Shown here: positions 14,386-48,235 of the stretch, piece after piece | Layout of the letters: each line of letters opens with the position of its first letter | How positions within the stretch are numbered: the first letter of the stretch is position 1 | Source of the DNA: Vicinamibacterales bacterium | GTDB taxonomy: Bacteria > Acidobacteriota > Vicinamibacteria > Vicinamibacterales > JAKQTR01 | Length of the DNA: 64,000 nucleotides | Reading direction: 5' to 3' | Assembly (NCBI GenBank): GCA_025456345.1 | Contig: JALOKU010000001.1 | Span: forward strand, 248,529-312,528 | Program-made: the position numbers and the translations under genes | The notes under the pieces: generated by a model | Told to the model about the DNA's origin: nothing | The model's input: only the letters and a program-made list of their open reading frames with translations | Databases searched by the model: none

Positions 14386-15549
14386 ATGCGGATGATGCGA
14401 ATCCTTCCGGTCTCGTTCGCGCTCGCGCTCGCCGTTGTCCTGACCGCGCCGGCGCCACGTGCCGCCGCCCGCCAGGCGCCCCTGGCCGCCCCCGCCCCCG
14501 CCGCGCAATCCGCCAGGGCCGACGACGTTCGGGCCCGCGCCGAGCAGGGGGATCCCGCCGCGCAACTCAGCCTCGGTCTCATGTATGCCATCGGCCAGGG
14601 TGTGCCGCGCGACTACGCGCAGGCCGCGGCCTGGTACCGCAAGGCCGCCGAACAGGGCAAGGCGCTCGCCCAGCTCAACCTGGGCTGGTGTTACGCCGCC
14701 GGGCTCGGTGTGCCGCAGGATCTCGCGCAGGCCGCGGCCTGGTACCGCAAGGCGGCGGAGCAGGGCGACCCCACGGCGCAGGTCAAGCTGGGCGGGCTTC
14801 TCGCCGCAGGCGACGGCGTGCCGCAAGACGAGGCGGAAGCTGCGGTGTGGTATCGAAAGGCCGCGGATGAGGGCGATGCCGCCGCCCAGCTCAGGCTCGG
14901 CCTGGCCTACGCGAACGGCCGCGGCGTCGAGCGCGACGCGGCCCAGGCCGCCGGCCTGTTCCGCCAGGCGGCCGAGCAGGGGAAGGCGCAGGCGCAGTTC
15001 ATGCTCGGGGTGATGCTCGAGCAGGGCCGGGGCGTGGCGCAGAATCTCGCCGACGCGGCGCGCTGGTATCGCCGCGCCGCCGAACAGGAGGATGTGACGG
15101 CGCAGTTGAACCTGGGCGCCTGCTACGAGCTCGGCAAGGGCGTCCCGCAGGACCCGGCCCAGGCCGTGGCGTGGTACCGCCGGGCCGCCGACCAGGGCGA
15201 GGCGAGGGCCCAGGCGAACCTCGGCCGCGCGTACGCCGCCGGGCGTGGTGTCGCGCAGGACTACGCCCAGGCCGCGGCCTGGTATCGGCGTGCGGCCGAC
15301 CAGGGCCACGCGGCCTCGCAATTCGACCTGGGTGAGCTCTACGCGCGCGCGATGGGCGTGCAGCGCAGCGACGTGGAAGCGTGCCGCTGGTTCCTGATCG
15401 CCGAGTCGCGCGCGGCGTCGCCGGCGGACAGGGCGGCCTATGCCGCCGCCCGGGAACGGCTCGCCCGCCGGATGACCGCGGCGCAACACAACGAGGCGCA
15501 GCGCCTCGCCCGCGAGTGGATCGCCGCCTTCGGTCGCCGCGCGAAATAG
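14386..15549 (+). CDS. Secreted Sel1-repeat (SLR) protein
   Basis: ATG at 14386 (MRMMRILPVSFALALAVVLTAPAP..., signal peptide). Eight consecutive 36-aa Sel1 repeats of the form xAQxxLGxxYxxGxGVxxDxAQAAxWYRKAAEQG. Confidence 0.85.
   Translation: MRMMRILPVSFALALAVVLTAPAPRAAARQAPLAAPAPAAQSARADDVRARAEQGDPAAQLSLGLMYAIGQGVPRDYAQAAAWYRKAAEQGKALAQLNLGWCYAAGLGVPQDLAQAAAWYRKAAEQGDPTAQVKLGGLLAAGDGVPQDEAEAAVWYRKAADEGDAAAQLRLGLAYANGRGVERDAAQAAGLFRQAAEQGKAQAQFMLGVMLEQGRGVAQNLADAARWYRRAAEQEDVTAQLNLGACYELGKGVPQDPAQAVAWYRRAADQGEARAQANLGRAYAAGRGVAQDYAQAAAWYRRAADQGHAASQFDLGELYARAMGVQRSDVEACRWFLIAESRAASPADRAAYAAARERLARRMTAAQHNEAQRLAREWIAAFGRRAK
14551..15414 (+). repeat. Eight tandem 108-bp (36-codon) Sel1 repeat units inside the CDS
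   Basis: Read directly from the translation: DPAAQLSLGLMYAIGQGVPRDYAQAAAWYRKAAEQG / KALAQLNLGWCYAAGLGVPQDLAQAAAWYRKAAEQG / ... / HAASQFDLGELYARAMGVQRSDVEACRWFLIAESRA. Confidence 0.9.
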
Positions 15550-15894: not shown

Positions 15895-16968
15895 CTACCG
15901 GAGTTGTCGGGGATCGACAACGACATGCTTGATGCGCTGGCGGTTCCACGTGTACGTGATGTGCACGAGGCCGTCCGACGTCTGAATGACGGCCGGGTAG
16001 GCGTAGCCGTCGGGCAGCGGCTGGTCCTCGATGACGGCGGCCTTGTTCCAGCAGACTCCGTCGGCGGAGAGCGCCACGACGAGGGGGTACCGTGCCCCGC
16101 CCCGCGTGCCTGGCCGCGGAGCCGCGTCGTTGTAGACGATGAGGTGGCGGCCGTCCTTCAGCGTGATGGCGTCGGTGCCCGCGTTGGGGTTGGGCAGCCC
16201 CAGCGCCTCGAGGGGGCTCCACGTCCGCCCGGCGTCGGCGGACCACGAGCTGGACACGACGCCGCTGCGCGTGCGGCCCACCATCTGCAGGCGTCCGTCC
16301 CGGTGGACCAGGATGCTTCCCTGGATGGCCTCGAGGTCCCACGAGCCCTTGTCGATCGGCCCGATGAACGCCCATGTCCGGCCCGCGTCCTGCGACCGCT
16401 CGACGTGGGCGCGCCAGCCGGTTGGCGCGTCCTCGGTGCTCGATGCGCTCAGCCACGCGCCGTCTGCGAGCACCACTGGCTTGTTCTTGATCGGGCCCAG
16501 CAGGGGAGCCGGCAGACGGGCGGCCTCGCTCCACGTTCTGCCGCCGTCCGGCGACGTCTTCACCATGCCCCACCAGGCGCGCGGCGAAGGGCCGACCTTG
16601 TAGAAGAGGCGCAGCGGCTGGCCCGGCGCCGCAAAGAGCACGGGGTTCCATGTGGGGTGGCGCGTGCCGTCCGGCTGCACGCCGTCCGCCACTTCGGCAG
16701 GCTCGGACCAGCGGCCCGACTCGAACCGCGTCACCCAGATGCCGACGTCCGGCGCGCTTTCGCGCGTGCCGCCGAACCACGCCGCCACGAGCCGGTCCGG
16801 CGCCACCTCGACGATGGTCGACGCATGGCACTGGGGGTATGGCGCGCGGTCGTTGAGCAACGCCGCGGATAGGATGGCGGGATGCTGAGCGCCGGCCAGG
16901 CCCGGCGCGAACATCGCGAATGCGATTGCCGCAGTCTGGACTCCACGCCGCAGGCGGGTCAGTGTCAT
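15895..16968 (-). CDS. BNR/Asp-box repeat exo-alpha-sialidase family protein (secreted)
   Basis: ATG at 16968 (MTLTRLRRGVQTAAIAFAMFAPGLAGAQ, signal peptide). Three Asp-box motifs: SPDGGRTWS, SQDAGRTWA, SADAGRTWS. Confidence 0.8.
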   Translation of the reverse strand: MTLTRLRRGVQTAAIAFAMFAPGLAGAQHPAILSAALLNDRAPYPQCHASTIVEVAPDRLVAAWFGGTRESAPDVGIWVTRFESGRWSEPAEVADGVQPDGTRHPTWNPVLFAAPGQPLRLFYKVGPSPRAWWGMVKTSPDGGRTWSEAARLPAPLLGPIKNKPVVLADGAWLSASSTEDAPTGWRAHVERSQDAGRTWAFIGPIDKGSWDLEAIQGSILVHRDGRLQMVGRTRSGVVSSSWSADAGRTWSPLEALGLPNPNAGTDAITLKDGRHLIVYNDAAPRPGTRGGARYPLVVALSADGVCWNKAAVIEDQPLPDGYAYPAVIQTSDGLVHITYTWNRQRIKHVVVDPRQLR

Positions 16969-16990
16969 GCGGTGAAGTGTACGACAGAAG

Positions 16991-17022
16991 CCCCCAACCC
17001 CTATCCCCCAGCCCCCAGCCCC
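16991..17022 (-). repeat. Five C-tracts at 7-nt spacing (G-quadruplex-capable on the minus strand)
   Basis: Plus strand: CCCCC AA CCCC TAT CCCCC AG CCCCC AG CCCC. Minus strand: GGGG CT GGGGG CT GGGGG ATA GGGG TT GGGGG. It lies in the 86-bp divergent spacer between the sialidase gene (start 16968) and the PIG-L gene (start 17055). Confidence 0.85.
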
Positions 17023-17054: not shown

Positions 17055-17972
17055 ATGTCCGTTCCTCGACGCCTGACGCTGGCTGTCATCGTGTTCCTGT
17101 TCGCCGGTGCGGTGTGGGTGAACCTGGCTGCGGCGCCCGCCGGCCAGGCTCCCAGCGCGCCTGCGCCGCTCAACATCATCGCCTTCGGCGCGCACCCTGA
17201 CGATTGCGATATCCGCGCCGGCGGGACCGCCGCGAAGTGGGCCGCGGCCGGCCATCGCGTGCGATTCGTCTCCGTGACCAACGGCGACGCCGGGCACCAG
17301 AGCCAGGGCGGCGGCGCGCTGGCGGCGCGGCGCCGGGCGGAGGCGCAGGAGGCCGGCCGCCGCCTCGGCGTCGATTACATCACGCTCGACAACCACGACG
17401 GCGAGCTGATGCCGACGCTGCAGGTCCGCGAGCAGATCATCCGGCTCATCCGCCACTGGAAGGCGGACCTGGTGCTGGGGCCGCGGCCGCACGACTACCA
17501 CCCGGACCATCGCTACACGGGCATCCTGTTGCAGGACGCTGCGTTCATGGTGACCGTACCCAATATTGCGCCCGACACGCCGTCGCTGCGGCAGAACCCG
17601 GTGTTCATGTATTTCGAGGACGGCTTCCAGAAGCCGAACCCGTTCACGCCCGACGTGGTGGTGTCGATCGACGACACCTTCGCGAAGAAGATCGACGCGA
17701 TCGACGCGCACGAGTCGCAGATGTACGAATGGCTGCCGTGGCTGAATGGCCGGCTCGACAGCGTGCCGAAGGATCCGGCGGGGCGGAAGGCGATGACGGC
17801 GAAGCAGCGCTTCGGGCGCATCAGCGAGGCCGCGCGCGCCACGCTGGTGAAGTACTACGGCGCGGAGGCGGGCGCGAAGGTCGAGCACGCGGAGGCCTTC
17901 GAGATCTGCGAGTACGGGCGGCGGCCGGACGCGGCCGAGATCAAACGGCTGTTCCCGTTCCTGCCGCGATAG
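17055..17972 (+). CDS. PIG-L/LmbE family N-acetylglucosaminyl deacetylase (secreted or membrane-anchored)
   Basis: GGGAGG RBS. N-terminal hydrophobic anchor. AHPDDCDI (the family AHPDD motif), then HPDH. Confidence 0.85.
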   Translation: MSVPRRLTLAVIVFLFAGAVWVNLAAAPAGQAPSAPAPLNIIAFGAHPDDCDIRAGGTAAKWAAAGHRVRFVSVTNGDAGHQSQGGGALAARRRAEAQEAGRRLGVDYITLDNHDGELMPTLQVREQIIRLIRHWKADLVLGPRPHDYHPDHRYTGILLQDAAFMVTVPNIAPDTPSLRQNPVFMYFEDGFQKPNPFTPDVVVSIDDTFAKKIDAIDAHESQMYEWLPWLNGRLDSVPKDPAGRKAMTAKQRFGRISEAARATLVKYYGAEAGAKVEHAEAFEICEYGRRPDAAEIKRLFPFLPR

Positions 17973-24504: not shown

Positions 24505-25338
24505 ATGCGCGCGTGTGTCGTCCTGTTGACGCTATTCGTATTCACGCTGCCGGCCGGCTCGGCGGCCCAGACCGCGATCCAGCCCGACAAGGTCATTCAC
24601 CTGTTCGACGGGAAGAGCCTGGACGGGTTCTACACGTGGCTCGTCGACGTCCACCGGGAGGACCCGCTGCGCGTGTTCACCGTCGTCGACCAGGTGGACG
24701 GGGCGCCGGCCATCCGGATCAGCGGCGAGAAGTGGGGCGGCATCATCACCCGCGAGTCGTACCGCGACTACCGTCTCATCGTCGAGTTCCGGTGGGGGCT
24801 GTTGACGTGGGGGCAGCGGCGGAACGCGACGCGCGACAGCGGCGTGCTCGTGCATGGGCAGGGGGCAGACGGCAACACCGGCCGCGATTTCAACGGGCCG
24901 TGGATGCGGTCCATCGAGGCGCAGGTCATCGAGGGCGGCGTCGGCGACCTCATTCTCGTGGCCGGCTTCGAGGCTGACGGCACGCGCCTCACGCCCCGCA
25001 TCACGGCGAGGACGAGCAAAGACCGGGACGGGGAGCCGGTGTTCGACCCGAACGGCGAACCCCGCGAGTTCGAGAGCGGCCGCATCAACTGGTTCGGCCG
25101 GGATCCCGACTGGCAGGACAAGCTCGGCTTCCGCGGCAAGGCTGACGTCGAGAGCCCTCTCGGCGAATGGACGCGCCTCGAGGTGGTCGCGCAGGGTGAC
25201 CGCCTCACCTACGTCGTGAACGGGAAGGGCGTGAACGAAGGCTTCCGGTCGAGCCTGACGGAGGGGAAGATCATGATCCAGTCGGAAGGGGCCGAGATCT
25301 TCTTCCGCCGCATCGATCTGGAGCCGGTGGGGAAGTAG
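24505..25338 (+). CDS. DUF1080 (3-keto-disaccharide hydrolase-like) secreted protein
   Basis: AGGAGG RBS. ATG at 24505 (MRACVVLLTLFVFTLPAGSAAQ, signal peptide). Segments LFDGKSLDGF, YRDYRLIVEFRW, IMIQSEGAEIFFRRIDLEP are hallmarks of the DUF1080 jelly-roll. Confidence 0.85.
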   Translation: MRACVVLLTLFVFTLPAGSAAQTAIQPDKVIHLFDGKSLDGFYTWLVDVHREDPLRVFTVVDQVDGAPAIRISGEKWGGIITRESYRDYRLIVEFRWGLLTWGQRRNATRDSGVLVHGQGADGNTGRDFNGPWMRSIEAQVIEGGVGDLILVAGFEADGTRLTPRITARTSKDRDGEPVFDPNGEPREFESGRINWFGRDPDWQDKLGFRGKADVESPLGEWTRLEVVAQGDRLTYVVNGKGVNEGFRSSLTEGKIMIQSEGAEIFFRRIDLEPVGK

Positions 25339-25356
25339 GGCGGGGACGCTACCGAT

Positions 25357-25445
25357 CAGTATTCAGTAGCCAGTAGCCAGTAGAAAGGCTCCTGAGCTGC
25401 GAGCTGTTCCGACCTACTGGCTACTGACTACTTGCTACTGGCTAC
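25357..25445. repeat. Inverted pair of heptad (7-nt) tandem arrays, CAGTAGC type
   Basis: Arm A (25357-25383): CAGTATT CAGTAGC CAGTAGC CAGTAG. Arm B (25414-25445): CTACTGG CTACTGA CTACTTG CTACTGG CTAC. The 13-bp core pairs perfectly (25371-25383 with 25414-25426) inside an imperfect stem of about 27 bp. The loop is 30 nt. Confidence 0.9.
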
Positions 25446-25463
25446 GGATACCGGAGGAGACTG

Positions 25464-25493
25464 GGGCCCGCCGCCAGGTGCGGCGGCGGGCCC
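25464..25493. terminator. Perfect 12-bp GC hairpin between convergent genes
   Basis: GGGCCCGCCGCC (25464-25475), loop AGGTGC, GGCGGCGGGCCC (25482-25493), followed by TCTGTTG on the plus strand. It lies 17 nt from the stop (25510-25512) of the minus-strand oxidoreductase gene. Confidence 0.6.
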
Positions 25494-25509
25494 TCTGTTG
25501 CGCTGACTC

Positions 25510-26802
25510 CTACGCGAACTGCGCGAAGTTGATCTTCGGGTCGAAGACGTCCGTCGACTTCAGCAGTTCTTCCCACGTCACCTCGCGGCCCGTCTCGGCG
25601 GCCATGCGGCCGAGCATGGCCGCCAGGGTCGACTCGGTGCCCGACATGGCCTCGTTCAACAGGGTGCCGGTCTGGATGCTGCCGATGAACGCGGCCTGCT
25701 TGTTGGCGTCCGCATCGTCAAGCGCCCCGCTGAACCGGCCGGTGACGGCGGCCTGCTGGTCGACCGCCTGCGGCCGGCCCAGGCCCGGGAACTCCCAGGA
25801 CGTCTCGCCGGAGATCCGGACTGGCGCGTCGTACCGTGCCTCGGCAACGCCGCGGGTTCCGGAGTACTGCATGCCGACGCCCCACGCCGCCTTGCCGAAC
25901 TGCGTCGACGAGAAGCTCACGTGCACGTCCCTGGGATACGTGAACACGCAGTTGTAATGGCTGGAGCAATCGCCGCCGTCGGTGCGGCCCGCCCGTCCGT
26001 TCCTGCCGTAGGCCTTCAGGGGCCTGCCGGCGAGCAGCCAGTTCGTCACGTCGATGATGTGAATGTTCTGCTCGACGATGATATCGCCGGAGATCGTTCT
26101 CTCGTGGATCCAGTTCCGCAGGCGCCGCTCATCGGCGCTCTTGTCTGCGAACGGCGGACGGTTGATGAACGACGCGAAGTAGTAGATCTGGCCCGACACC
26201 GGCGCGCCGATCTGCCCCTCGCGGATGCGCTTCTCGAGAAGGACGTACGGTGACGCGTAGCGGATCTGGAAGCCCACGGCCAGGCTCAGCTTGCCCTTCA
26301 TCTTCTCGCCGACGGCCATGATCCGCCTGGCGCCGGGCACGTCCACCGCGACGGGTTTTTCCAGGTAGACATGCTTGCCGGCGGCCGCCGCGGCCTCGAG
26401 GTGCTCGGGGTGGAAATAGGGCGGCGTCGCGATGTAGACGGCGTCGACGTCCTTGCTCGCGAAGAGCTGTTCGTAGGCCTTGAGGCCCTTGAACATGTGG
26501 GCGGCACCGGCGAACGGCTTGTTGAGCTTTCCAGAGATCAAGCCCAGGGTCATGGCGCTGTTCTCCATGTTGTCTTGGAAGACGTCGCCCATCGCCGTCA
26601 CGACGGCGTTCGAGTACCGCAGGAACGACTCGGTCACCGCGGTGCCGCGGCCGCCGCAGCCGAGTACGCCGAGCCGCACGGCCGAGTTGGCCTGGGTGCC
26701 GAAGACCGTGCTGGGTTTCAGAATGGTGAACCCGGCCGTGGCCGCGGCGGCCAGGCCCACGAACTCGCGGCGGCCGACCTTGGTGTCGTGTGATTCGTTC
26801 AT
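25510..26802 (-). CDS. Gfo/Idh/MocA-family oxidoreductase with a Tat signal peptide
   Basis: ATG at 26802 with AAGGAGAG RBS (internal Met 73 of ORF 25510..27018). The protein starts MNESHDTKVGRREFVGLAAAATAGF (Tat motif). Rossmann segment LGVLGCGGRG. EKPVA motif typical of the family. Confidence 0.9.
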   Translation of the reverse strand: MNESHDTKVGRREFVGLAAAATAGFTILKPSTVFGTQANSAVRLGVLGCGGRGTAVTESFLRYSNAVVTAMGDVFQDNMENSAMTLGLISGKLNKPFAGAAHMFKGLKAYEQLFASKDVDAVYIATPPYFHPEHLEAAAAAGKHVYLEKPVAVDVPGARRIMAVGEKMKGKLSLAVGFQIRYASPYVLLEKRIREGQIGAPVSGQIYYFASFINRPPFADKSADERRLRNWIHERTISGDIIVEQNIHIIDVTNWLLAGRPLKAYGRNGRAGRTDGGDCSSHYNCVFTYPRDVHVSFSSTQFGKAAWGVGMQYSGTRGVAEARYDAPVRISGETSWEFPGLGRPQAVDQQAAVTGRFSGALDDADANKQAAFIGSIQTGTLLNEAMSGTESTLAAMLGRMAAETGREVTWEELLKSTDVFDPKINFAQFA

Positions 26803-26890
26803 GTCTCCCTCTCCTTGCTGGCGGGAATCAGTCCGGGAGAATTCTATACCCCCGCCTTCGCCCGGTCCAACATTCAGGGCTTCGGCGAGG

Positions 26891-26918
26891 CAAGCCCGCG
26901 CGCGAGCGCGCGGGCTTG
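26891..26918. promoter_or_regulatory. Perfect 12-bp inverted repeat in the divergent promoter region (candidate operator)
   Basis: CAAGCCCGCGCG cgag CGCGCGGGCTTG. It lies 48 nt upstream of the TIM-barrel gene ATG (26966) and 89 nt upstream of the oxidoreductase ATG (26802). Confidence 0.35.
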
Positions 26919-26965
26919 AGTCGCGCGCCGCATCGGAGTAGTCTGCGCCTGCGAGGGAGGACAGC

Positions 26966-27892
26966 ATGATGAAGATCGATAGACGGGCGTTTCTGGAGAT
27001 GACGGCGGCCGCGTCCACGCTGGCCGCGATCCGCGGCGCGACGCTGTCGGCTGCGCCGCAGGCCGGCGCTGGCGGGGGCCTGAAAAAGGCGGTCTACGTG
27101 TCGATGCTCCCGAAGGAGCTGGGCTACCTGGACAAGTTCAAGCTGGCCCTCGACGTGGGGTTCCAGGGCATCGAGATCGGGACGATTTCGGCTCCGGCCG
27201 TCGCCGACGAGATCAAGGAAGCGTCAACCAAGACCGGCCTGAAGATCCACGGCGTCATGAACGCGGATCACTGGCGCTACCCGTTGTCGAGCGCCGACCC
27301 GGAGGTGGTCAACAAGAGCGTCGCGGGCATGGAAACCTCGCTGCGCAACGCGAAACTCTGGGGCGCCGACGTGGTCCTGCTCGTGCCGGGCGTCGTCAAC
27401 CCCGAGACCGGCTACAAGGACGCCTGGACTCGTTCCCAGAAGGTGATCAAGGAGCGCATCCTGCCGCTGGCCCAGGAACTGAAGGTCGTCGTCGGCATGG
27501 AGGAGGTCTGGAACAAGTTCCTCCTGAGCCCGCTCGAGATGGCGCGCTACTGCGACGAGTTCAATTCGCCCTGGGTGAAGGCGTATTTCGACGTCGGCAA
27601 CATGCTCTTCTACGGCTACCCGCAGGACTGGGTCCGCACGCTCGGCCCGCGCATCGCCCGGGTGCATGTCAAAGACTTCAAGCTCGATCGCAAGGAGAGC
27701 AAGTACGCCTGGACGAACCTCGGCGAAGGCGACGTGGACTGGCCGGAGGTGAGGAAGGCCCTCGCCGAGGTCAAGTACGAAGGGTGGGTGACGACCGAGA
27801 TCAGCGGCGGCGACGCCGCCTACCTGAAGGACGTCGTCGCGCGCCTCGACAAAATCTTCGCGGGCCAGAAGCCGTTCACGCCGCCGGCGTAG
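26966..27892 (+). CDS. Xylose-isomerase-like TIM-barrel protein (sugar phosphate isomerase/epimerase family) with a Tat signal
   Basis: GGGAGGA RBS. The protein starts MMKIDRRAFLEMTAAASTLAAIRG (Tat motif). Segments GFQGIEIG, VVLLVPG, MEEVWNKF and VHVKDF are typical AP-endonuclease-2/xylose-isomerase-like barrel segments. Confidence 0.85.
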   Translation: MMKIDRRAFLEMTAAASTLAAIRGATLSAAPQAGAGGGLKKAVYVSMLPKELGYLDKFKLALDVGFQGIEIGTISAPAVADEIKEASTKTGLKIHGVMNADHWRYPLSSADPEVVNKSVAGMETSLRNAKLWGADVVLLVPGVVNPETGYKDAWTRSQKVIKERILPLAQELKVVVGMEEVWNKFLLSPLEMARYCDEFNSPWVKAYFDVGNMLFYGYPQDWVRTLGPRIARVHVKDFKLDRKESKYAWTNLGEGDVDWPEVRKALAEVKYEGWVTTEISGGDAAYLKDVVARLDKIFAGQKPFTPPA

Positions 27893-28014
27893 GGGCCAGG
27901 GACTAGGGGCTAGGCGCTAGGGGCTAGTCAGCAACGGTGTGACGCTGCACCCACGCGGCGGCAGCCGCGTCAGACTAGCGCCCAGCGCCCAGTCCCTAGC
28001 GCCTCCGTACCCTA
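27890..28014. repeat. Inverted pair of heptad tandem arrays, TAGGGGC type, filling the whole convergent spacer
   Basis: Arm A (27890-27931): TAGGGGC CAGGGAC TAGGGGC TAGGCGC TAGGGGC TAGTCAG. Arm B (27972-28014): ...GACTAGC GCCCAGC GCCCAGT CCCTAGC GCC...CTA. The stem is about 33 bp and imperfect (about 27 pairs). A nested hairpin TGACGC...GCGTCA (27940-27972) sits in the loop. The first TAG is the stop codon of the plus-strand gene and the last CTA is the stop codon of the minus-strand gene. Confidence 0.9.
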
Positions 28015-29133
28015 GAGCGCCGCGAGCACTTCCTTCATCAGCCACTTCGTGCCCTCGATGCCGTCCATCGGCCCGTTCTCCCACTCGAGGGCAATCGTCC
28101 CCTTGAAGCGGTGCGCGTTCAGGATGCGCACGCTGCGCTGCACGTCGTTCCAGTCCTTCTCGGGCGTCTTCCAGCGATCCCAGTACTTCGCGTGCACGTG
28201 CGTGAACGTGTAGGGCATCACCGCCTCGAGGCCGTGGAAGAGGTGGTACTCGTGCTCCCAGTTGCAGAAGTCCGGCGTGCACTCGCAGTAGGGGTGGTTC
28301 ACCTCGTCCATGATGATCCGGATGTTCATGGGGTTGGCGCAGAGGCCCCAGTGGTTCTCGATGGTGATCTTCACGCCCACCTTCTCGCCGTACTCGGCGA
28401 GCTCCCGGAACGAGTCGATGCACTTCTTCAGGTAGACGACGATCCGCTCGTTCTTCGGGTAGCCGGTGGAGTGGTCCTCGGCCTCGGGCATGATGCGCCC
28501 GCTAGAGGTGCCGGTGTTCGCGCGCATCGTCTTGGCGCCGAGTACCGCGGCCGTGTCCATCCACAGCTTCGCGACGCGGATGCCTTCCTTCCGCTTGGTG
28601 TCGTCGGGATCGGCCAGAAACTGTGGTGCGTTGTTTGAGAGGTGCTGGGTCACGAACTTCTCGTTCGCGACGATGGCCGCCAGCTTCTCGACCCACTTCT
28701 TCGACGCCGGTGCGCTCGGATCCCATCGGCGCATCGTGAACGGCTTGCCGTTGCGCTCGATCGTCGTCTCCGTGTACTGGGCGGCGTCGGCCGGATCGCC
28801 GAACACGTCCGACCACAGGTCGAGGTGATAGACGCCGGGGAAGAAGTCCCTCGTCCACCTCGGCAGATCGTGCATCGTGATCTCGCCGTACTTCTTCCGC
28901 AAGGCCATCGTCTCTTCGTTGGGCGTGCCGCGGCCGTACGTCTTGAACAGGTGGCGCTGCGGCCAGCACGTCATGGCGAGGCGCGACAGCTTCTCCGGTT
29001 CGGTCAACTGGCGCGCGACAGACGCCTGCGCGGACAGCGAGTCCGACAGCAGCGTGCCGGCGGCGGCGACGCCGAGGCCAGCCTTCAGCAGGAAGTCGCG
29101 GCGGTCGGCGGTGGATGGGTGACGCGTGTCCAT
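28012..29133 (-). CDS. Xylose-isomerase-like TIM-barrel family protein with a Tat signal
   Basis: I prefer ATG at 29133 (GGGAGGA RBS) over the GTG at 29148. The protein starts MDTRHPSTADRRDFLLKAGLGVAAAG (Tat motif). ITIENHWG, HVHAKYW and TIALEWEN are barrel-type metal-site segments. Confidence 0.8.
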   Translation of the reverse strand: MDTRHPSTADRRDFLLKAGLGVAAAGTLLSDSLSAQASVARQLTEPEKLSRLAMTCWPQRHLFKTYGRGTPNEETMALRKKYGEITMHDLPRWTRDFFPGVYHLDLWSDVFGDPADAAQYTETTIERNGKPFTMRRWDPSAPASKKWVEKLAAIVANEKFVTQHLSNNAPQFLADPDDTKRKEGIRVAKLWMDTAAVLGAKTMRANTGTSSGRIMPEAEDHSTGYPKNERIVVYLKKCIDSFRELAEYGEKVGVKITIENHWGLCANPMNIRIIMDEVNHPYCECTPDFCNWEHEYHLFHGLEAVMPYTFTHVHAKYWDRWKTPEKDWNDVQRSVRILNAHRFKGTIALEWENGPMDGIEGTKWLMKEVLAAL

Positions 29134-29342
29134 GATTCCTCCCGGCACAAAACAGGTGCCGCGGGCATGCTACACCAAGGGCGCCGCGGCGTGCAGGGGC
29201 AAAGGGCACGGCGAGGGGCGAGCGACGGGTGACCTGATGTGACGCGGATGTGGCGTTGTGTGAAGAAATGGTGGCGCACGATTTACGCGCGGACTCCTGT
29301 GCTCTACTAGGAACGCCTGCGCCTGAGAATTGCGGAGTGTTC

Positions 29343-44476: not shown

Positions 44477-44845
44477 ATGTTGCATCAGGCAGCCGTTCTT
44501 GTATACGATGATTATCGTATGAGCAAGCAGGCGATTTCCGTCACGTTGTCGCCGGACAACCTGGTCTGGCTGCGGGGGCGTGCACTGGCTGACGGCAGGG
44601 TCAGCCTCAGTGAGTTCCTCGACAGGCTCGTCACGCGGGCGCGGACCGGCGGGGCGCCGGCGCGTCCGGCGAGGTCGATGAGGGGCGCCCTTGCGGTGAA
44701 CGCCGACGAGGACGTCGTTGCGACGCCGTCGGTCGAACCCGACGTGTGGGCAGCCTGGGAGGCGAAGTGGGAGGGGCTGCTCGAGGGCCTCGACCCTTCA
44801 TCGCCGACGCCCAGGCGGGGAGGCGCACGTGGCCAGGGTGCCTGA
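44477..44845 (+). CDS. vapB: Ribbon-helix-helix (CopG/VapB-like) antitoxin
   Basis: ATG at 44477 has a GGAGG RBS 7 nt upstream. The alternative ATG at 44519 gives MSKQAISVTLSPDNLVWLRGRA..., a typical RHH N-terminal strand plus helix. The stop overlaps the start region of the PIN gene. Confidence 0.6.
   Translation: MLHQAAVLVYDDYRMSKQAISVTLSPDNLVWLRGRALADGRVSLSEFLDRLVTRARTGGAPARPARSMRGALAVNADEDVVATPSVEPDVWAAWEAKWEGLLEGLDPSSPTPRRGGARGQGA
44503..44520. promoter_or_regulatory. 7-bp perfect inverted repeat ATACGAT-gatt-ATCGTAT at the 5' end of the antitoxin gene
   Basis: 44503-44509 and 44514-44520. It overlaps the ATG at 44519. It could be an autoregulatory operator if the gene starts at 44519, but it is intragenic if the gene starts at 44477. 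Confidence 0.3.
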
Positions 44846-45239
44846 CGCCGCGGTCTGCGACACCAACGCGCTGCTTTACTACGGCTTCGGCAGCCGGCGG
44901 CTGGGCAAGGTCGCTGCGGCGCTCTTCGACGCCTGCGACGCGCAGGACACGATCATCTACGTGCCGGCCGCCGTCATCCTGGAGTTCGGCCTCGTGCTTG
45001 GCGGCCGGCGTTCTCCGGTCCGGGTCCGCCTGCGCGGCTTCTTTGAGGACCTCTTCGCGAACCCGGCATTCCAGCCGTTCGATCTCACGCCGGAACAGGT
45101 CTATCTGGCGGACGAGGAGCGGCCCAATAACGACCCGTTCGATGGGTTGATCTGCGCGGCGGCGCGGCGCCTCGGCCTGCCGCTCATCACCTGCGACACT
45201 GACATCGCCGACTGGGGACGCGTCCGCGTCGTCTGGTAG
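44838..45239 (+). CDS. vapC: PIN-domain toxin (VapC-like ribonuclease)
   Basis: GTG at 44838 (or 44829) overlaps the antitoxin stop at 44843-44845. VCDTNALLYY carries the first PIN acidic residue. EFGLVL, NDPFDGLICAAA and ITCDTD match the remaining acidic positions. Confidence 0.75.
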   Translation: MPDAAVCDTNALLYYGFGSRRLGKVAAALFDACDAQDTIIYVPAAVILEFGLVLGGRRSPVRVRLRGFFEDLFANPAFQPFDLTPEQVYLADEERPNNDPFDGLICAAARRLGLPLITCDTDIADWGRVRVVW

Positions 45240-45251
45240 GCGACCCGGCCC

Positions 45252-45272
45252 CCGGCGTCCGGCGTCCGGCGT
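45252..45272. repeat. Three perfect tandem heptads CCGGCGT
   Basis: CCGGCGT CCGGCGT CCGGCGT, starting 13 nt after the vapC stop. A 6-bp hairpin follows: TACGGC tcctat GCCGTA (45283-45300). Confidence 0.85.
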
Positions 45273-45349: not shown

Positions 45350-48235
45350 ATGGTCGGCCAGACTATCTCGCACTACCGCATCGCCGAGCGGCTGGGCTCG
45401 GGCGGGATGGGTGTGGTCTACCGGGCCCAGGACCTGCGCCTGGAGCGGCCGGTCGCCCTCAAGTTCCTGCCTGAAGCGCTGACCAAGGACCCCTCGGCCA
45501 TGGAGCGCCTGCTTCGCGAGGCGAAGGCCGCCTCGTCGCTTCACCATCAGAACATCCGCACGATCTTCTCGTTCGACGAGTACGAGGGACGCCAGTTCAT
45601 CGTCATGGAGCTGCTCGACGGGCGTCCGCTCGACCGCGTGGTCGCGGACGGGCCGATGGCGCCCGCCCTCGTGCTGTCGATGGCAGCCCAGGTTGCCGAC
45701 GCCCTCGACGTCGCGCATGCCCGGGGCATCGTGCATCGCGACATCAAGCCCGCCAACCTGTTCCTGACCGGCTCGGGTCTTCTGAAGGTGCTGGACTTCG
45801 GCCTGGCCAAGACGCACCACGTGGCGCCGGCAACCGATTCCGCCATCGACGGCCAGGCGACCATGCTGGACCTGACGATGTCGGGCACGACGATCGGAAC
45901 GGCGTCGTACATGGCACCCGAGCAGGTGCTCGGCGAATCGGTCGACAGGCGCAGCGACCTGTTTTCGTTCGGTGCCGTGCTGTACGAAATGGCCACCGGG
46001 CGCCAGGCGTTCTGCGGGCCGACGCTGGGTGCGATTTTCGACGCGATCCTGAACCGCCCGCCCTTACCGCTGCAGTTGTTGCAGCCGGATCTGCCGGCAG
46101 AGCTCGGCGCGATCATCAGCAAGGCGCTCGAGAAGGACCCGGCCTGCCGGTATCAGAGCGCTGCCAAGATGCGCACGGACCTCGAGTCCGCGAGGCAGAT
46201 CCTGGAGGCGGACTCGGGCGCAGATCTCGGCCCCCGCGCGGCGGAGACTCGCTCGCGGTCAAGACCGGCGGGCGGCGGCCGCCGCTGGCCCGCCGCCGCC
46301 GCAGGCGTGACCGCCGCAGCCGTGCTTGCCCTCGTGGCTGCCGGGCTGTGGATGGGCGTGCCGCGCGCCACGTACTATCCGTGCGTGGTGGTCGGCGAGT
46401 TTCGGAGCACCATCGACGAGGTGCCGGCGAAGCTCGTGGAGTTCCAGGTGAAGCGGGCGCTCAGCCAGGTGCCGGAGTTCGTGGTGTATGACCAGCGCGG
46501 CTACGAGCTCGCGCTGAAGGCGGCGGTTCCAGACGAGACACACGACGCAGCGTCCTGGAAGCGGTGGATGCCTGGCCGGCGGACCAGCCGTCCGGCCGGG
46601 CCCGCCGTGCGGGTCACCGCGGACATCGGGCCGTCGCTGGGCAACATCGACGTCGCGCTCTCCATCACCACCAGAGCACGCGCGGAACACCGTGCGATGC
46701 CATACAAGGGCGTGAACGCCTTCTTCGACCGGGGCATCGACGACATCGCCAGGCTCGCCATCGCCCGCTTTCGCGAGGACGACCACGGAGCGGCGGCGGC
46801 CGGGGCCCTGCAGTACAGGCCCGCGCGGACGCTGCTGTCGCATCATCTCGACGCGGTGAGGATCTTCTGGCGGGCCCACGACGCGTGGACGCGCCTGGAC
46901 CTGGGCGCCGAACGCGACCTGCAGCGCGCCCTCGAGATTGACGCCGACTTCGCGCTTGCGCGCCTCACGCTGGGGGAGATCCGGATCTTCCAGATGAGGA
47001 TGAAGCCCGCGATCGACGAGATCGAGCGGGCGCGGCAGACCCCGGACGCGCTCACCGACGCCGAGCGGCTCCGCAGTTCGGCGCTGCTCGCGCGCGCGTC
47101 GCTCAACGCGCCGGACGAGAGGGTCGGGCTGCAGCGCCTGATCGAGCTCGAGCCCACGAGCAAGGAGTACGTCTTCGAGCTTGGCGAATCGTATTTCCAC
47201 ACCGCCGACATTGACGAAGCGAGCGTGCAGTACGAGCGGGCGCTCCGGCTCGAGCCCGACTACGCCACGGCGCACAATCACCTTGGCTACTGCTACTCGT
47301 GGAGCGGTGATCACAGGAGAGCCCAGGAACACTTGACCCGCTACCTGGAGCTGGACCGGTCAGCGAACGCCTGGGACAGTCTCGGCGACGCGTACATGCA
47401 CGCCGGCGAATACGCGAAAGCCGCTCACGCGAAGCAGCAGGCGCTGGCGCAGGCGCCCGACCTCTACTTCGCGGTCAAGCGCCTGATTGCCATCGACATC
47501 CTCAGCGGCCGGCTCTCGGAGGCGGCGCGCAAGGTCCAGGCCGCGCTGGGGAGCGCGGCGGACGCCCTGCAGAGGGCCGAGTTCTACGCGGCCCGCGCGT
47601 ACGGCGAACTGCGGGCAGGGCGCCTCAACCAGGCTGCCGACGCCTGTCGCGCCGGCCTCGCGCTCATCGCGCCAGACAGCGATGACTCGCCCGCCGATGA
47701 ACTGTTGTGGCTTCAGGGCCAGGCCGCCCTCGCACGACACGATACTGCAGCCGCGGCCAGGGCGCTGGCCAGGCTGCACGAGATGGTGGCGAAGGGCCGC
47801 ATCTCCGAAACGAACTACCGGCCGGTTTACAAGTACTGGCTGCACCTTGCCGCCCTGGTCGATGCCGCGGAAGGACGGCGGACCGAGGCGGCGGCCCGGC
47901 TGGGCGACCTCGACCACGTCAGGCAGAAGCTGGGCTATTGGGGCACACCGTACGACCAGGCGTTCTTCCTTGATGAGATCGGCCGCGTGCGCGAGTCCCT
48001 CGGTGATGCCGTGCGGGCGGAACGCGACTACCGCGATGCCCTGGCCTACAATCCGCACTACGCGCTCGCGCGCGTCCATCTGGGGATGCTCCTGCGCTCC
48101 GCAGGCAGGGCCGAGGAGGCCCGCCGCGAGCTCGCGGCGTTTGCCGCCGAGTGGAAGGACGCCGACCCTGCGGTGCCCGAACTGAAGCAGCTTGCCGGCC
48201 TGAGCACGGACAGCGGCCGGCCGCTTCGACCGTAG
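45350..48235 (+). CDS. Ser/Thr protein kinase with TM helix and C-terminal TPR region
   Basis: 961 aa. Motifs GSGGMGVVY, VALKFL, HRDIKPANL, DFGLAK, GTASYMAPEQ. TM helix AAAGVTAAAVLALVAAGLW. Long TPR region. Confidence 0.9.
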   Translation: MVGQTISHYRIAERLGSGGMGVVYRAQDLRLERPVALKFLPEALTKDPSAMERLLREAKAASSLHHQNIRTIFSFDEYEGRQFIVMELLDGRPLDRVVADGPMAPALVLSMAAQVADALDVAHARGIVHRDIKPANLFLTGSGLLKVLDFGLAKTHHVAPATDSAIDGQATMLDLTMSGTTIGTASYMAPEQVLGESVDRRSDLFSFGAVLYEMATGRQAFCGPTLGAIFDAILNRPPLPLQLLQPDLPAELGAIISKALEKDPACRYQSAAKMRTDLESARQILEADSGADLGPRAAETRSRSRPAGGGRRWPAAAAGVTAAAVLALVAAGLWMGVPRATYYPCVVVGEFRSTIDEVPAKLVEFQVKRALSQVPEFVVYDQRGYELALKAAVPDETHDAASWKRWMPGRRTSRPAGPAVRVTADIGPSLGNIDVALSITTRARAEHRAMPYKGVNAFFDRGIDDIARLAIARFREDDHGAAAAGALQYRPARTLLSHHLDAVRIFWRAHDAWTRLDLGAERDLQRALEIDADFALARLTLGEIRIFQMRMKPAIDEIERARQTPDALTDAERLRSSALLARASLNAPDERVGLQRLIELEPTSKEYVFELGESYFHTADIDEASVQYERALRLEPDYATAHNHLGYCYSWSGDHRRAQEHLTRYLELDRSANAWDSLGDAYMHAGEYAKAAHAKQQALAQAPDLYFAVKRLIAIDILSGRLSEAARKVQAALGSAADALQRAEFYAARAYGELRAGRLNQAADACRAGLALIAPDSDDSPADELLWLQGQAALARHDTAAAARALARLHEMVAKGRISETNYRPVYKYWLHLAALVDAAEGRRTEAAARLGDLDHVRQKLGYWGTPYDQAFFLDEIGRVRESLGDAVRAERDYRDALAYNPHYALARVHLGMLLRSAGRAEEARRELAAFAAEWKDADPAVPELKQLAGLSTDSGRPLRP

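Follow-up and report, generated by a model that had tools for sequence, protein, structure and literature searches.

Facing heptanucleotide repeats between two convergent genes of a Vicinamibacterales bacterium belong to a widespread class of intergenic arrays with a fixed polarity

In a 64,000-nucleotide (nt) stretch of a metagenome-assembled Vicinamibacterales genome, phylum Acidobacteriota (contig JALOKU010000001.1, positions 248,529 to 312,528; the whole stretch is called the window below), most of the spacer between the stop codons of two convergent genes, a DUF1080 gene and a Gfo/Idh/MocA oxidoreductase gene (Gfo below), is filled by a facing pair of heptanucleotide simple-sequence repeats at positions 25357-25445. 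This element is a member of a widespread and fast-evolving class of intergenic 7-nt arrays that lie just past stop codons, have a fixed polarity and, when they face each other, usually have complementary arms. As to what the pair is and does, we give somewhat better than an even chance to the following reading: it has grown by slippage, its two arms are kept alike, it provides an accessory stem-loop at gene 3' ends that can be lost, and the stop codons that it contains are a by-product.

The left arm starts 18 nt beyond the stop codon of the DUF1080 gene (TAG, 25336-25338) and, at the other side, the stop codon of the Gfo gene, also TAG, is the reverse complement of 25510-25512 (the coordinates of all features are collected in Table 1). 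Both arms are arrays of the unit CAGTAGN, where N is a free base. Tandem Repeats Finder reports the left array at 25364-25383 (period 7, 2.9 copies of CAGTAGC, 100%) and the right one at 25414-25445 (period 7, 4.6 copies of CTACTGG, 84%). An inverted-repeat search pairs 25357-25383 with 25414-25440 (27 nt, 85% complementary, 30 nt between them) and, because the arms are tandem arrays, several other pairing registers are possible, one of them of 19 nt at 95%. The region 25350-25452 has a folding energy of -44.1 kcal/mol on the plus strand (z-score -5.0) and of -49.0 kcal/mol on the minus strand (z-score -5.6), and none of 200 shuffled versions folded as well as the native sequence. Allowing up to one mismatch, CAGTAGNCAGTAG has 7 matches in the window, every one at this locus, for 0.06 expected, and a triple TAG with a 7-nt period occurs 8 times in the window, only here and at 27903-27927, for 0.01 expected. 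The GC content of 25350-25449 is 52%, as against 69% for the whole window. The separate GC hairpin is located 16 nt downstream of the Gfo stop codon and folds with -34.3 and -31.9 kcal/mol on the two strands (z-scores -4.9 and -5.5). A search of Rfam 15 gave no match, with E up to 1, on either strand of 25000-28300.

A preliminary description of this locus, made from the letters alone, had read the two arms and the 30-nt spacer exactly as they are. Pfam and the gene calls agree with the convergent DUF1080 and Gfo/Idh/MocA neighbours that it proposed, the stop codons that it placed in every frame of both strands are present (TAG plus three TGA within 25357-25445), and we recovered the long imperfect hairpin between the arms, the perfect 12-base-pair (bp) GC hairpin at 25464-25493 (100% complementary) and the local AT-richness. 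Its opinion that this is not a random spacer is supported by the excess of the motif and by the folding energies, which are better than those of all 200 shuffled sequences.

Gene order around the element is kept in relatives whose Gfo protein is 81-97% identical (designated below by handles such as L126), and in contigs from the same population both intergenic regions are identical to those of the window. In L127, L130, L131, L135 and L137, the GC hairpin, the 30-nt spacer and the CAGTAGN arms are all kept, and the number of units and some single units differ. In L124, L125, L128, L133, L134, L139, L141 and L146, CAGAAG-type arrays are found on at least one side, and a CAGAAGN left arm faces a complementary C/T-rich NCTTCTG or CTTCTTG arm in L124, L125, L134, L139, L141 and L146. 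The CAGAAG unit contains no stop codon, the loci that carry it have a different GC hairpin beside the Gfo stop, and the CAGAAG arms still fold into long stems (z-scores of -3.7 for L124, -6.7 for L125 and -6.1 for L134). Units and hairpins also occur in other combinations: AAGTAGC and CAGAAGG units are mixed in one arm of L146, L132 combines CAGTAG arms and the second hairpin type, in L136 a left arm of (CAGGAGC)x10 faces CTACTG units, and the right arm of L129 is made of CCCGAAT and is not complementary. Heptads are absent from L126, L138 and every relative with an identity of 80% or less; these loci have only a GC hairpin, which is the more widely kept part of the region among the relatives of the window type (L126, L127, L130, L131, L135 and L137). 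A second facing pair of the window, at 27890-28014, has orthologues with the units TAGGSGC, CT[ACG]GGGG, GGCTCGG and GGGGATT, and the G-rich arm always comes first.

Two of these relatives have additional features. About 60-215 nt past its Gfo stop, L128 carries four copies of a 38-nt higher-order repeat, gtcAGAAGCAAGAAGCCAGAAGggctcactgacgatc, which is made of a heptad arm and part of the spacer. L128 and L129 are both mosaics: over its final 600 nt the Gfo gene matches the window at 97% identity, the DUF1080 gene does so at 86-87%, and the element between the two genes differs in type from that of the window. This contrast in identity places a recombination breakpoint at or near the heptad region.

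The same anatomy recurs in other genomes. Where two arrays lie no more than 150 nt apart, 54 of 74 cases are inverted copies of one unit and 4 are direct copies. The median lengths of the two arms are 30.5 and 33 nt, that is about 4.3-4.9 units, and the spacers between them cluster at about 15 nt or about 57 nt. The unit consists of six conserved bases and one free base; over 990 units, the deviation from the array's own consensus is 20% at position 7 and 2-7% at the other positions. Many other units have the same layout in the same genomes (GTGATTC, GAGTGAT, GTGAATG, TGAGTGC, GGTGATG, CGTGAAC, AGAGGTT, GTTTCGA, GTCGAGC and ATTGCGG), and rare ones too, such as GTGATTC, GAGTGAT and GTTTCGA, occur as complementary pairs. 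The arms are able to pair because both usually carry the same unit. The spacers of facing pairs begin A-rich in 26 of 78 cases and end T-rich in 32 of 78, the reverse arrangement being found 4 times for each, and long spacers often contain a GC hairpin; many pairs therefore flank a structure that resembles a bidirectional terminator. A consensus terminator scan flags one of the three facing-pair loci tried in other genomes. Spacers of about 57 nt with a run of A, a GC-rich hairpin and a run of T were seen in Pyrinomonadaceae (L067 4600-4657, L095 3389-3442, L120 4217-4273 and L122 3849-3908); they have the look of bidirectional terminators, and the CAGTAG arms flank the hairpin rather than form it.

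Regular 7-nt spacing could also be that of a protein-binding array, in which an oligomeric protein that binds RNA or DNA would occupy a series of sites along each arm and control hairpin formation, as in the model of HutP. HutP binds three XAG motifs 7 nt apart at each of two sites, with a 12-17 nt linker, around a terminator (PMC2425495), and (CAGUAGN)n would similarly present UAG with an exact 7-nt period in the 5' arm of both transcripts. The conservation of six core positions with a free position 7, and an orientation that is kept even in non-complementary arms, would suit such an array as well. We nevertheless consider it very unlikely, as many unrelated units have the same layout in the same genomes and many binding specificities would be required, as the second arm offers the complement and not the motif, and as the unit drifts between close relatives. 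HutP, moreover, is a Bacillus-type protein, and no candidate protein was identified here, no search having been aimed at a HutP-like gene. A reading of the unit as (XAG)2X, after HutP and TRAP, was rejected, since conservation is as high at position 1 as at the AG positions and position 7 alone is free.

Facing pairs follow an orientation rule. Among 54 adjacent arrays with assignable polarity, 50 have the G-rich, C-poor arm (for this family, the CAGTAG strand) in the 5' position whichever DNA strand is read, and 2 have the swapped order. Non-complementary arms keep the G-rich-first order (11 versus 1), and loci gathered by protein homology instead of by the repeat gave no exception to it. Where a single array abuts a stop codon, the gene's sense strand is the G-rich one in 42 cases versus 12, and for CAGTAG-family arrays abutting gene ends the TAG strand is the sense strand in 66 cases versus 4. 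Units that are stop-free on both strands and abut gene ends also have more G than C in the sense strand (23 versus 5), and since these units obey the polarity, the rule tracks base composition or strand and not stop codons.

Because the G-rich-first order holds for non-complementary arms and for stop-free units, and because arms of 30-33 nt are found even for units that do not form quadruplexes, a broader proposal can be formulated, which we judge unlikely: that facing heptad arrays mark an uncharacterised orientation-locked process common to many bacterial phyla. This process may consist in the directional writing of G-rich 7-nt repeats, on the sense strand and just past stop codons; it may be linked with transcription termination or R-loops, or else with break repair at the central hairpin. 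The arrays may instead be a class of bidirectional 3'-end modules with the G-rich arm placed before a terminator; the C-rich arm may then be transcribed only on read-through, and the resulting duplex of about 30 bp may mark the read-through RNA for cleavage. In the literature we found no published account that explains the G-rich-first rule together with arms of 30-33 nt in non-quadruplex units.

Polarity could also originate from DNA breaks, if the central hairpin were a fragile site. The arms would then be either scars left where repeats were synthesised on both 3' ends as a break healed, or GT-rich strands whose correct orientation favours the loading of RecA after resection. The G-rich strand does run 5' to 3' towards the centre from both sides, regardless of gene orientation and of complementarity, and this is the geometry of a head-to-head telomere fusion and of the productive orientation of Chi around a break. 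In either form, we find the proposal hardly credible. A species has a single Chi sequence, and the idea of a Chi site was rejected because many different units are present together in the same genome; in addition, no enzyme is known to add heptad repeats in bacteria. Furthermore, the single arrays that hug stop codons share a polarity relative to the gene (the 42 versus 12 above), which points to transcription or translation rather than to breaks.

Gene context was assigned by a codon-position GC-periodicity method, which classified all four window cases correctly. Of the facing pairs, 28 were between co-directional genes, 10 between convergent and 4 between divergent ones, so that the restriction to convergent intergenic regions suggested in the preliminary description does not hold. 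When an arm is beside the 3' end of a gene, it begins no more than 20 nt from the stop codon in 27 of 31 cases for left arms and 19 of 21 for right arms, and the stop codon of the gene is inside the array for 33 of the 57 CAGTAG-type arrays next to gene ends. Being often the adjacent gene's own stop codon is the one real but trivial role of the stops in these arrays; for annotation, this means that a neighbouring gene's stop codon often comes from the heptad array. We rejected the possibility that the arrays are seeded from TAG stops, as the genes' own stops that precede CAGTAG arrays are TGA, TAG and TAA at background rates.

The preliminary description had taken the element for a designed translation stop pad, in which stops in six frames catch frameshifted or read-through ribosomes and an added hairpin completes an insulator between convergent genes. 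The stops are indeed in all six frames, the TAG strand of the CAGTAG family is the sense strand of the adjacent gene (66 versus 4), TAG or TGA is commoner in the 5' arms of other families than in their 3' arms (8 of 14 versus 2 of 14), and arrays often lie just upstream of a hairpin and T run, where an entering ribosome could disturb termination. This analysis nevertheless contradicts the stop pad as a selected function, since stops are missing from orthologous arms and the polarity persists in units that have none: the CAGAAGN/NCTTCTG arms at the site itself (L124, L125, L134 and others) are stop-free and fold equally well, the GGGGATT and CTCGGGG units at orthologues of the neighbouring second pair are stop-free too, and the orientation of stop-free units is kept in 23 cases versus 5. 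In addition, L126 has no heptads at all, facing pairs are not limited to convergent genes, and the GGGAATC unit of Xanthomonas and the GGGGAYT unit of Nostoc are stop-free (units as in PMC4692102). The stop pad thus retains, in our estimation, a very slight probability.

Using the exact 20-nt probe CAGTAGCCAGTAGCCAGTAG (CAGTAGC), scanned against one genome per species, we obtained at least 118 matching genome stretches, when about 1 is expected by chance. Among the matches listed, 56 of 118 are from Acidobacteriota according to record titles (Pyrinomonadaceae, Blastocatellia, Acidobacteriaceae, Bryobacterales and Vicinamibacterales), and the other groups include Acidimicrobiia and Streptomyces, Chloroflexota, Planctomycetota, Bacteroidota and Chlorobi, Desulfobacterota, Nitrospirota, Cyanobacteria, Treponema and a few Proteobacteria. 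The phenomenon is that of heptad arrays as such, CAGTAGC being only mildly favoured. In 827 kilobases (kb) of other genomes, with the CAGTAG family left out, there are 60 arrays of period 7 and 0-7 for each of the other periods from 4 to 14. In viral contigs, the CAGTAGC probe found 10 stretches and two composition-matched control heptads found 4 and 3; the idea that CAGTAGC is a uniquely favoured unit was rejected, as it is only 2.5-3 times commoner than these controls. A literature search found no paper on a CAGTAGC repeat in bacteria, the search for the string giving nothing but sequences of primers and markers from eukaryotes.

Distant Gfo homologues (51-53% identity, probably from other Acidobacteriota) have (GCAGTAG)x11.7 or (AGTAGGC)x4.4 just upstream of the gene, at 2758-2839 in L203 and at about 123-1402 in L204-L206. 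The CAGTAG unit family therefore recurs independently.

In the reading that we favour, the arrays would lengthen and shorten by replication slippage in 7-nt steps, and the likeness of the arms would be maintained either because one arm of the inverted repeat is copied from the other as template or because pairing is selected for. In transcripts entering from either gene, the arms are predicted to fold into a long stem of 6-bp helices broken at the variable seventh position; as the seventh positions are free and do not covary, single mismatches between these helices should be frequent. This predicted stem and the adjacent 12-bp GC hairpin would together form an accessory 3'-end structure for both convergent transcripts, which, by analogy with REP hairpins, might hinder read-through into the convergent gene and block 3'-to-5' exonucleases. 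The element would be at most helpful and inessential, and the stop codons would be a by-product of the unit sequence.

A number of observations weigh against this reading. The element is missing in the close relative L126, and any function must therefore be dispensable. Slippage is deduced from differences in unit number. A function of the hairpin alone does not account for the strict G-rich-arm-first order, because the swapped order would fold equally well. Pairing is frequent and not obligatory, since non-complementary facing arms exist (for example in L031, L057, L058, L068, L129 and L136). The complementarity of seventh positions between arms is 90 observed for 86.6 +/- 5.0 by chance, and for pairs between co-directional genes there is no preference for folding on the transcribed strand (17 versus 15, with crude gene calls). 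At the two facing pairs of the window, a consensus promoter and terminator scan found no terminator-like site at 25339-25509 or 27893-28011, and the tails that follow the stems, CTCTGTTG and CAGTCTCC, have no U tract. Two more specific ideas were rejected on these data: RNA-level selection acting through G-U tolerance on the transcribed strand, in view of the absence of bias (17 versus 15), and in-register complementarity of the variable seventh positions, which is not above chance.

Several of the same facts speak for a non-adaptive by-product, which we regard as possible, though we doubt it. The arrays would be self-propagating and functionless mutational structures that arise by 7-nt slippage, perhaps promoted by R-loops or by hairpin stalling after ribosomes leave the RNA; only purifying selection would act, and the arrays would survive where genes, promoters and ribosome-binding sites stay unbroken. 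Such an origin would suit the fast turnover of units and copy number, the growth to 10 units or more, the total loss in L126 and in more distant relatives, the seventh positions without covariation, the folding without transcribed-strand bias and the existence of non-complementary pairs. It would suit also the control heptads that form arrays in viral contigs (4 and 3, versus 10), from which it follows that the CAGTAGC unit is not very special, and the work of Rehm et al., who did not find a regulatory role for either the Xanthomonas or the Nostoc repeats (PMC4692102). What argues against it is the strict orientation (50 versus 2), the narrow range of arm length around 30-33 nt, the complementarity of the arms that survives a change of unit, and the under-representation of pairs in divergent regions: pure neutral slippage predicts none of these, and orientation, arm length, complementarity and context therefore call for selection or for a directional mechanism.

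The locus is not the only one of its kind in the window, where a period scan found 5 arrays of period 7, all intergenic, versus 0-2 for the periods 4-12 (Table 1). The second facing pair lies between two convergent AP_endonuc_2 genes, and its arrays include both stop codons: the first TAG of the arm at 27890-27927 is the stop codon for a 308-amino-acid gene (26966-27892, plus strand), and the last CTA of the other arm (28012-28014) is that of a gene of 378 amino acids (28012-29148, minus strand). The 49-nt spacer of this pair contains two small GC hairpins, and the region 27886-28016 folds with -78.7 and -84.2 kcal/mol on the two strands (z-scores -4.4 and -5.2). With four runs of at least three G, the arm at 27890-27927 has the potential, by sequence, to form a G-quadruplex. 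All four genes around the two facing pairs (at 25336, 25510, 27890 and 28012) end in TAG, when TGA is the commonest stop codon in the GC-rich loci surveyed; at the second pair, the stops are TAG because the array itself supplies them.

The two other loci have single arrays. The G-rich array at 16989-17022 is in a divergent region, between a BNR_2 gene (15895-16968, minus strand) and a PIG-L gene (17055-17972, plus strand), and is located on the antisense strand, 32 nt upstream of the PIG-L start. The array at 45244-45272 lies upstream of a Ser/Thr kinase-TPR gene (45350-48235), and its unit CCGGCGT has as many G as C and hence no polarity. Tandem repetition of another kind is found at 14386-15549, where 108-nt tandem DNA repeats (14599-15306) encode a Sel1-repeat protein in which Pfam matched seven Sel1 stretches (E 3e-72).

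Table 1. Position, strand and main characteristics of the heptad arrays of the window and of the features around the locus 25357-25445
Feature	Position	Strand	Remarks
DUF1080/3-keto-disaccharide hydrolase gene, 277 amino acids	24505-25338	+	Pfam PF06439; called gene in identical contigs L001-L005
Left (5') arm, CAGTATT CAGTAGC CAGTAGC CAGTAG	25357-25383	+	CAGTAGN-family heptad array; TAG in all three plus-strand frames
Spacer/loop of 30 nt, AAAGGCTCCTGAGCTGCGAGCTGTTCCGAC	25384-25413	none	Weak internal stem of 4-6 bp only
Right (3') arm, CTACTGG CTACTGA CTACTTG CTACTGG CTAC	25414-25445	-	(CAGTAGN)n on the minus strand; TAG in all three minus-strand frames
GC hairpin, perfect 12-bp stem, 6-nt loop	25464-25475 / 25482-25493	none	100% complementary; no U tract
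Gfo/Idh/MocA oxidoreductase gene, 430 amino acids, twin-arginine-like N-terminus	25510-26802	-	Pfam PF01408 and PF22725; identical protein on record under a Vicinamibacterales bacterium
Second facing pair, left arm, TAGGGGC CAGGGAC TAGGGGC TAGGCGC TAGGGGC TAG	27890-27927	+	Tandem-repeat calls
Second facing pair, C-rich right arm (CTAGCGC / CCAGCGC ...)	27977-28014	-	Tandem-repeat calls
Single G-rich array, TAGGGGC TGGGGGC TGGGGGA TAGGGGT TGGGGGC	16989-17022	-	Same family as the TAGGGGC arms
Single array, (CCGGCGT)3-4	45244-45272	+	Begins 4 nt past the stop of a PIN-domain gene (44718-45239)

We compared the element with the repeats and regulatory structures that it could be taken for. The repetitive extragenic palindromes (REP) and bacterial interspersed mosaic elements (BIME) of enterobacteria are imperfect intergenic or intercistronic hairpins that follow stop codons and can stabilise the upstream mRNA and hinder read-through; REP have one conserved palindromic consensus per genome and are spread by the RAYT transposase. 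By contrast, the structures studied here are tandem 7-nt arrays of many different units, without a conserved full-length copy, and the motif is present at one locus in 64 kb. As regards features of a mobile element, there is no second copy in the window, spacers are common only to orthologous sites, and two alike loops occur in the Pyrinomonadaceae contig L078. A CRISPR array, with repeats of 23-47 nt and unique spacers, also differs from contiguous 7-nt units in two inverted arrays. The element is thus neither of the REP/BIME type nor a CRISPR array. Nor is the locus a canonical intrinsic terminator, as its GC stem has no U tract and the consensus scan was negative. The short tandemly repeated repetitive (STRR) sequences of heterocyst-forming cyanobacteria have the units CCCCAGT, TTGGTCA and CAACAGT. 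With the unit CAGTAGN and a Vicinamibacterales host, the present arrays are the same kind of repeat and another family; for Calothrix, three heptanucleotides are mentioned in a citing paper (PMC4692102).

The sites of the hut terminator resemble the arrays in having NAG triplets with a 7-nt period, at least three per site, that flank a terminator stem, and differ in that both hut sites carry the motif on one strand, whereas the second arm is here the complement (PMC2425495). Close relatives, moreover, have AAG or GAG in the place of UAG, or have lost the array. A HutP-type antiterminator site was rejected accordingly: UAG is present in the 5' arm only of each transcript and the motif is not kept in orthologues. 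A second stop-bearing heptamer, TAACTGA, is intergenic and scattered over phyla like CAGTAGN (Beggiatoaceae, Cyanobacteria and Bacteroidetes); according to MacGregor (2015), the array stops all three frames and so can reach into an upstream gene only at its very end (PMC4679880). It differs from the present arrays in lying mostly just upstream of start codons and in forward orientation, with one inverted set among 170, and its proposed role is to provide binding sites for a translational regulator (PMC4679880).

The nearest general category is that of long simple-sequence repeats (LSSRs), with units of 5-11 nt, of which heptanucleotides are the most abundant class in many bacteria, an excess for which slippage was proposed (Mrazek 2007, as cited in PMC4679880 and PMC4692102). 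The present arrays have the characteristics of heptanucleotide LSSRs: at least three tandem units, an intergenic location near gene ends, turnover at a kept position, and inverted pairs. The excess of period 7 over other periods is reproduced here, both in the window and in the 827 kb of other genomes. In the same summaries, LSSRs favour large, GC-rich, non-pathogen genomes and are excluded from coding sequence (Mrazek 2007); as far as these citing summaries show, the census is one of direct arrays and includes no facing pairs, polarity rule or CAGTAGC.

The closest match is with the heptameric repeats GGGAATC of Xanthomonas and GGGGA(C/T)T of Nostoc (the latter of the cyanobacterial STRR type) described by Rehm et al. 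(2015), which are intergenic with four units preferred, follow a stop codon at no more than about 50 nt, have the G-rich strand as the sense strand, are rare between divergent genes, and vary in length and sequence among close relatives at a kept position (PMC4692102). Each Xanthomonas genome has 70-75 "convergent" inverted pairs, which are potential stem-loops (PMC4692102). The present arrays are alike in their arms of about four to five units, their position after stops, their facing orientation and the position kept despite turnover in relatives, and the TAGGGGC pair of the window and the orthologous GGGGATT and CTCGGGG units are of the G-rich type. The preliminary description had recognised no named family, and here it has to be corrected, as the element fits these heptameric intergenic repeats, inverted pairs included (PMC4692102). 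The differences are the lineage, Acidobacteriota, the hypervariable seventh position, and the absence from CAGTAGN of any run of two or more G, so that it cannot form a G-quadruplex; the element therefore belongs to the broad heptad class and not to its quadruplex subclass. Rehm et al. explain the preference for four units by the G-quadruplex (PMC4692102). This explanation is weakened by arrays that have the same arm length, position and polarity without a quadruplex, and with CAGTAGN as a counter-example, what was offered for Xanthomonas and Nostoc probably does not hold in general.

In itself the locus is ordinary, being one more intergenic heptamer repeat pair, now in Acidobacteriota. We found no published account that explains the change of unit in both arms between close relatives together with the orientation rule; these two features provide a way into the question of why 7-nt repeats dominate the intergenic microsatellites of bacteria, and by the same route it can be asked whether they act at gene 3' ends. 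In comparison with the systems above, the repeat class is already known, and the present arrays are set apart by the Acidobacteriota lineage and by the non-quadruplex unit CAGTAGN.

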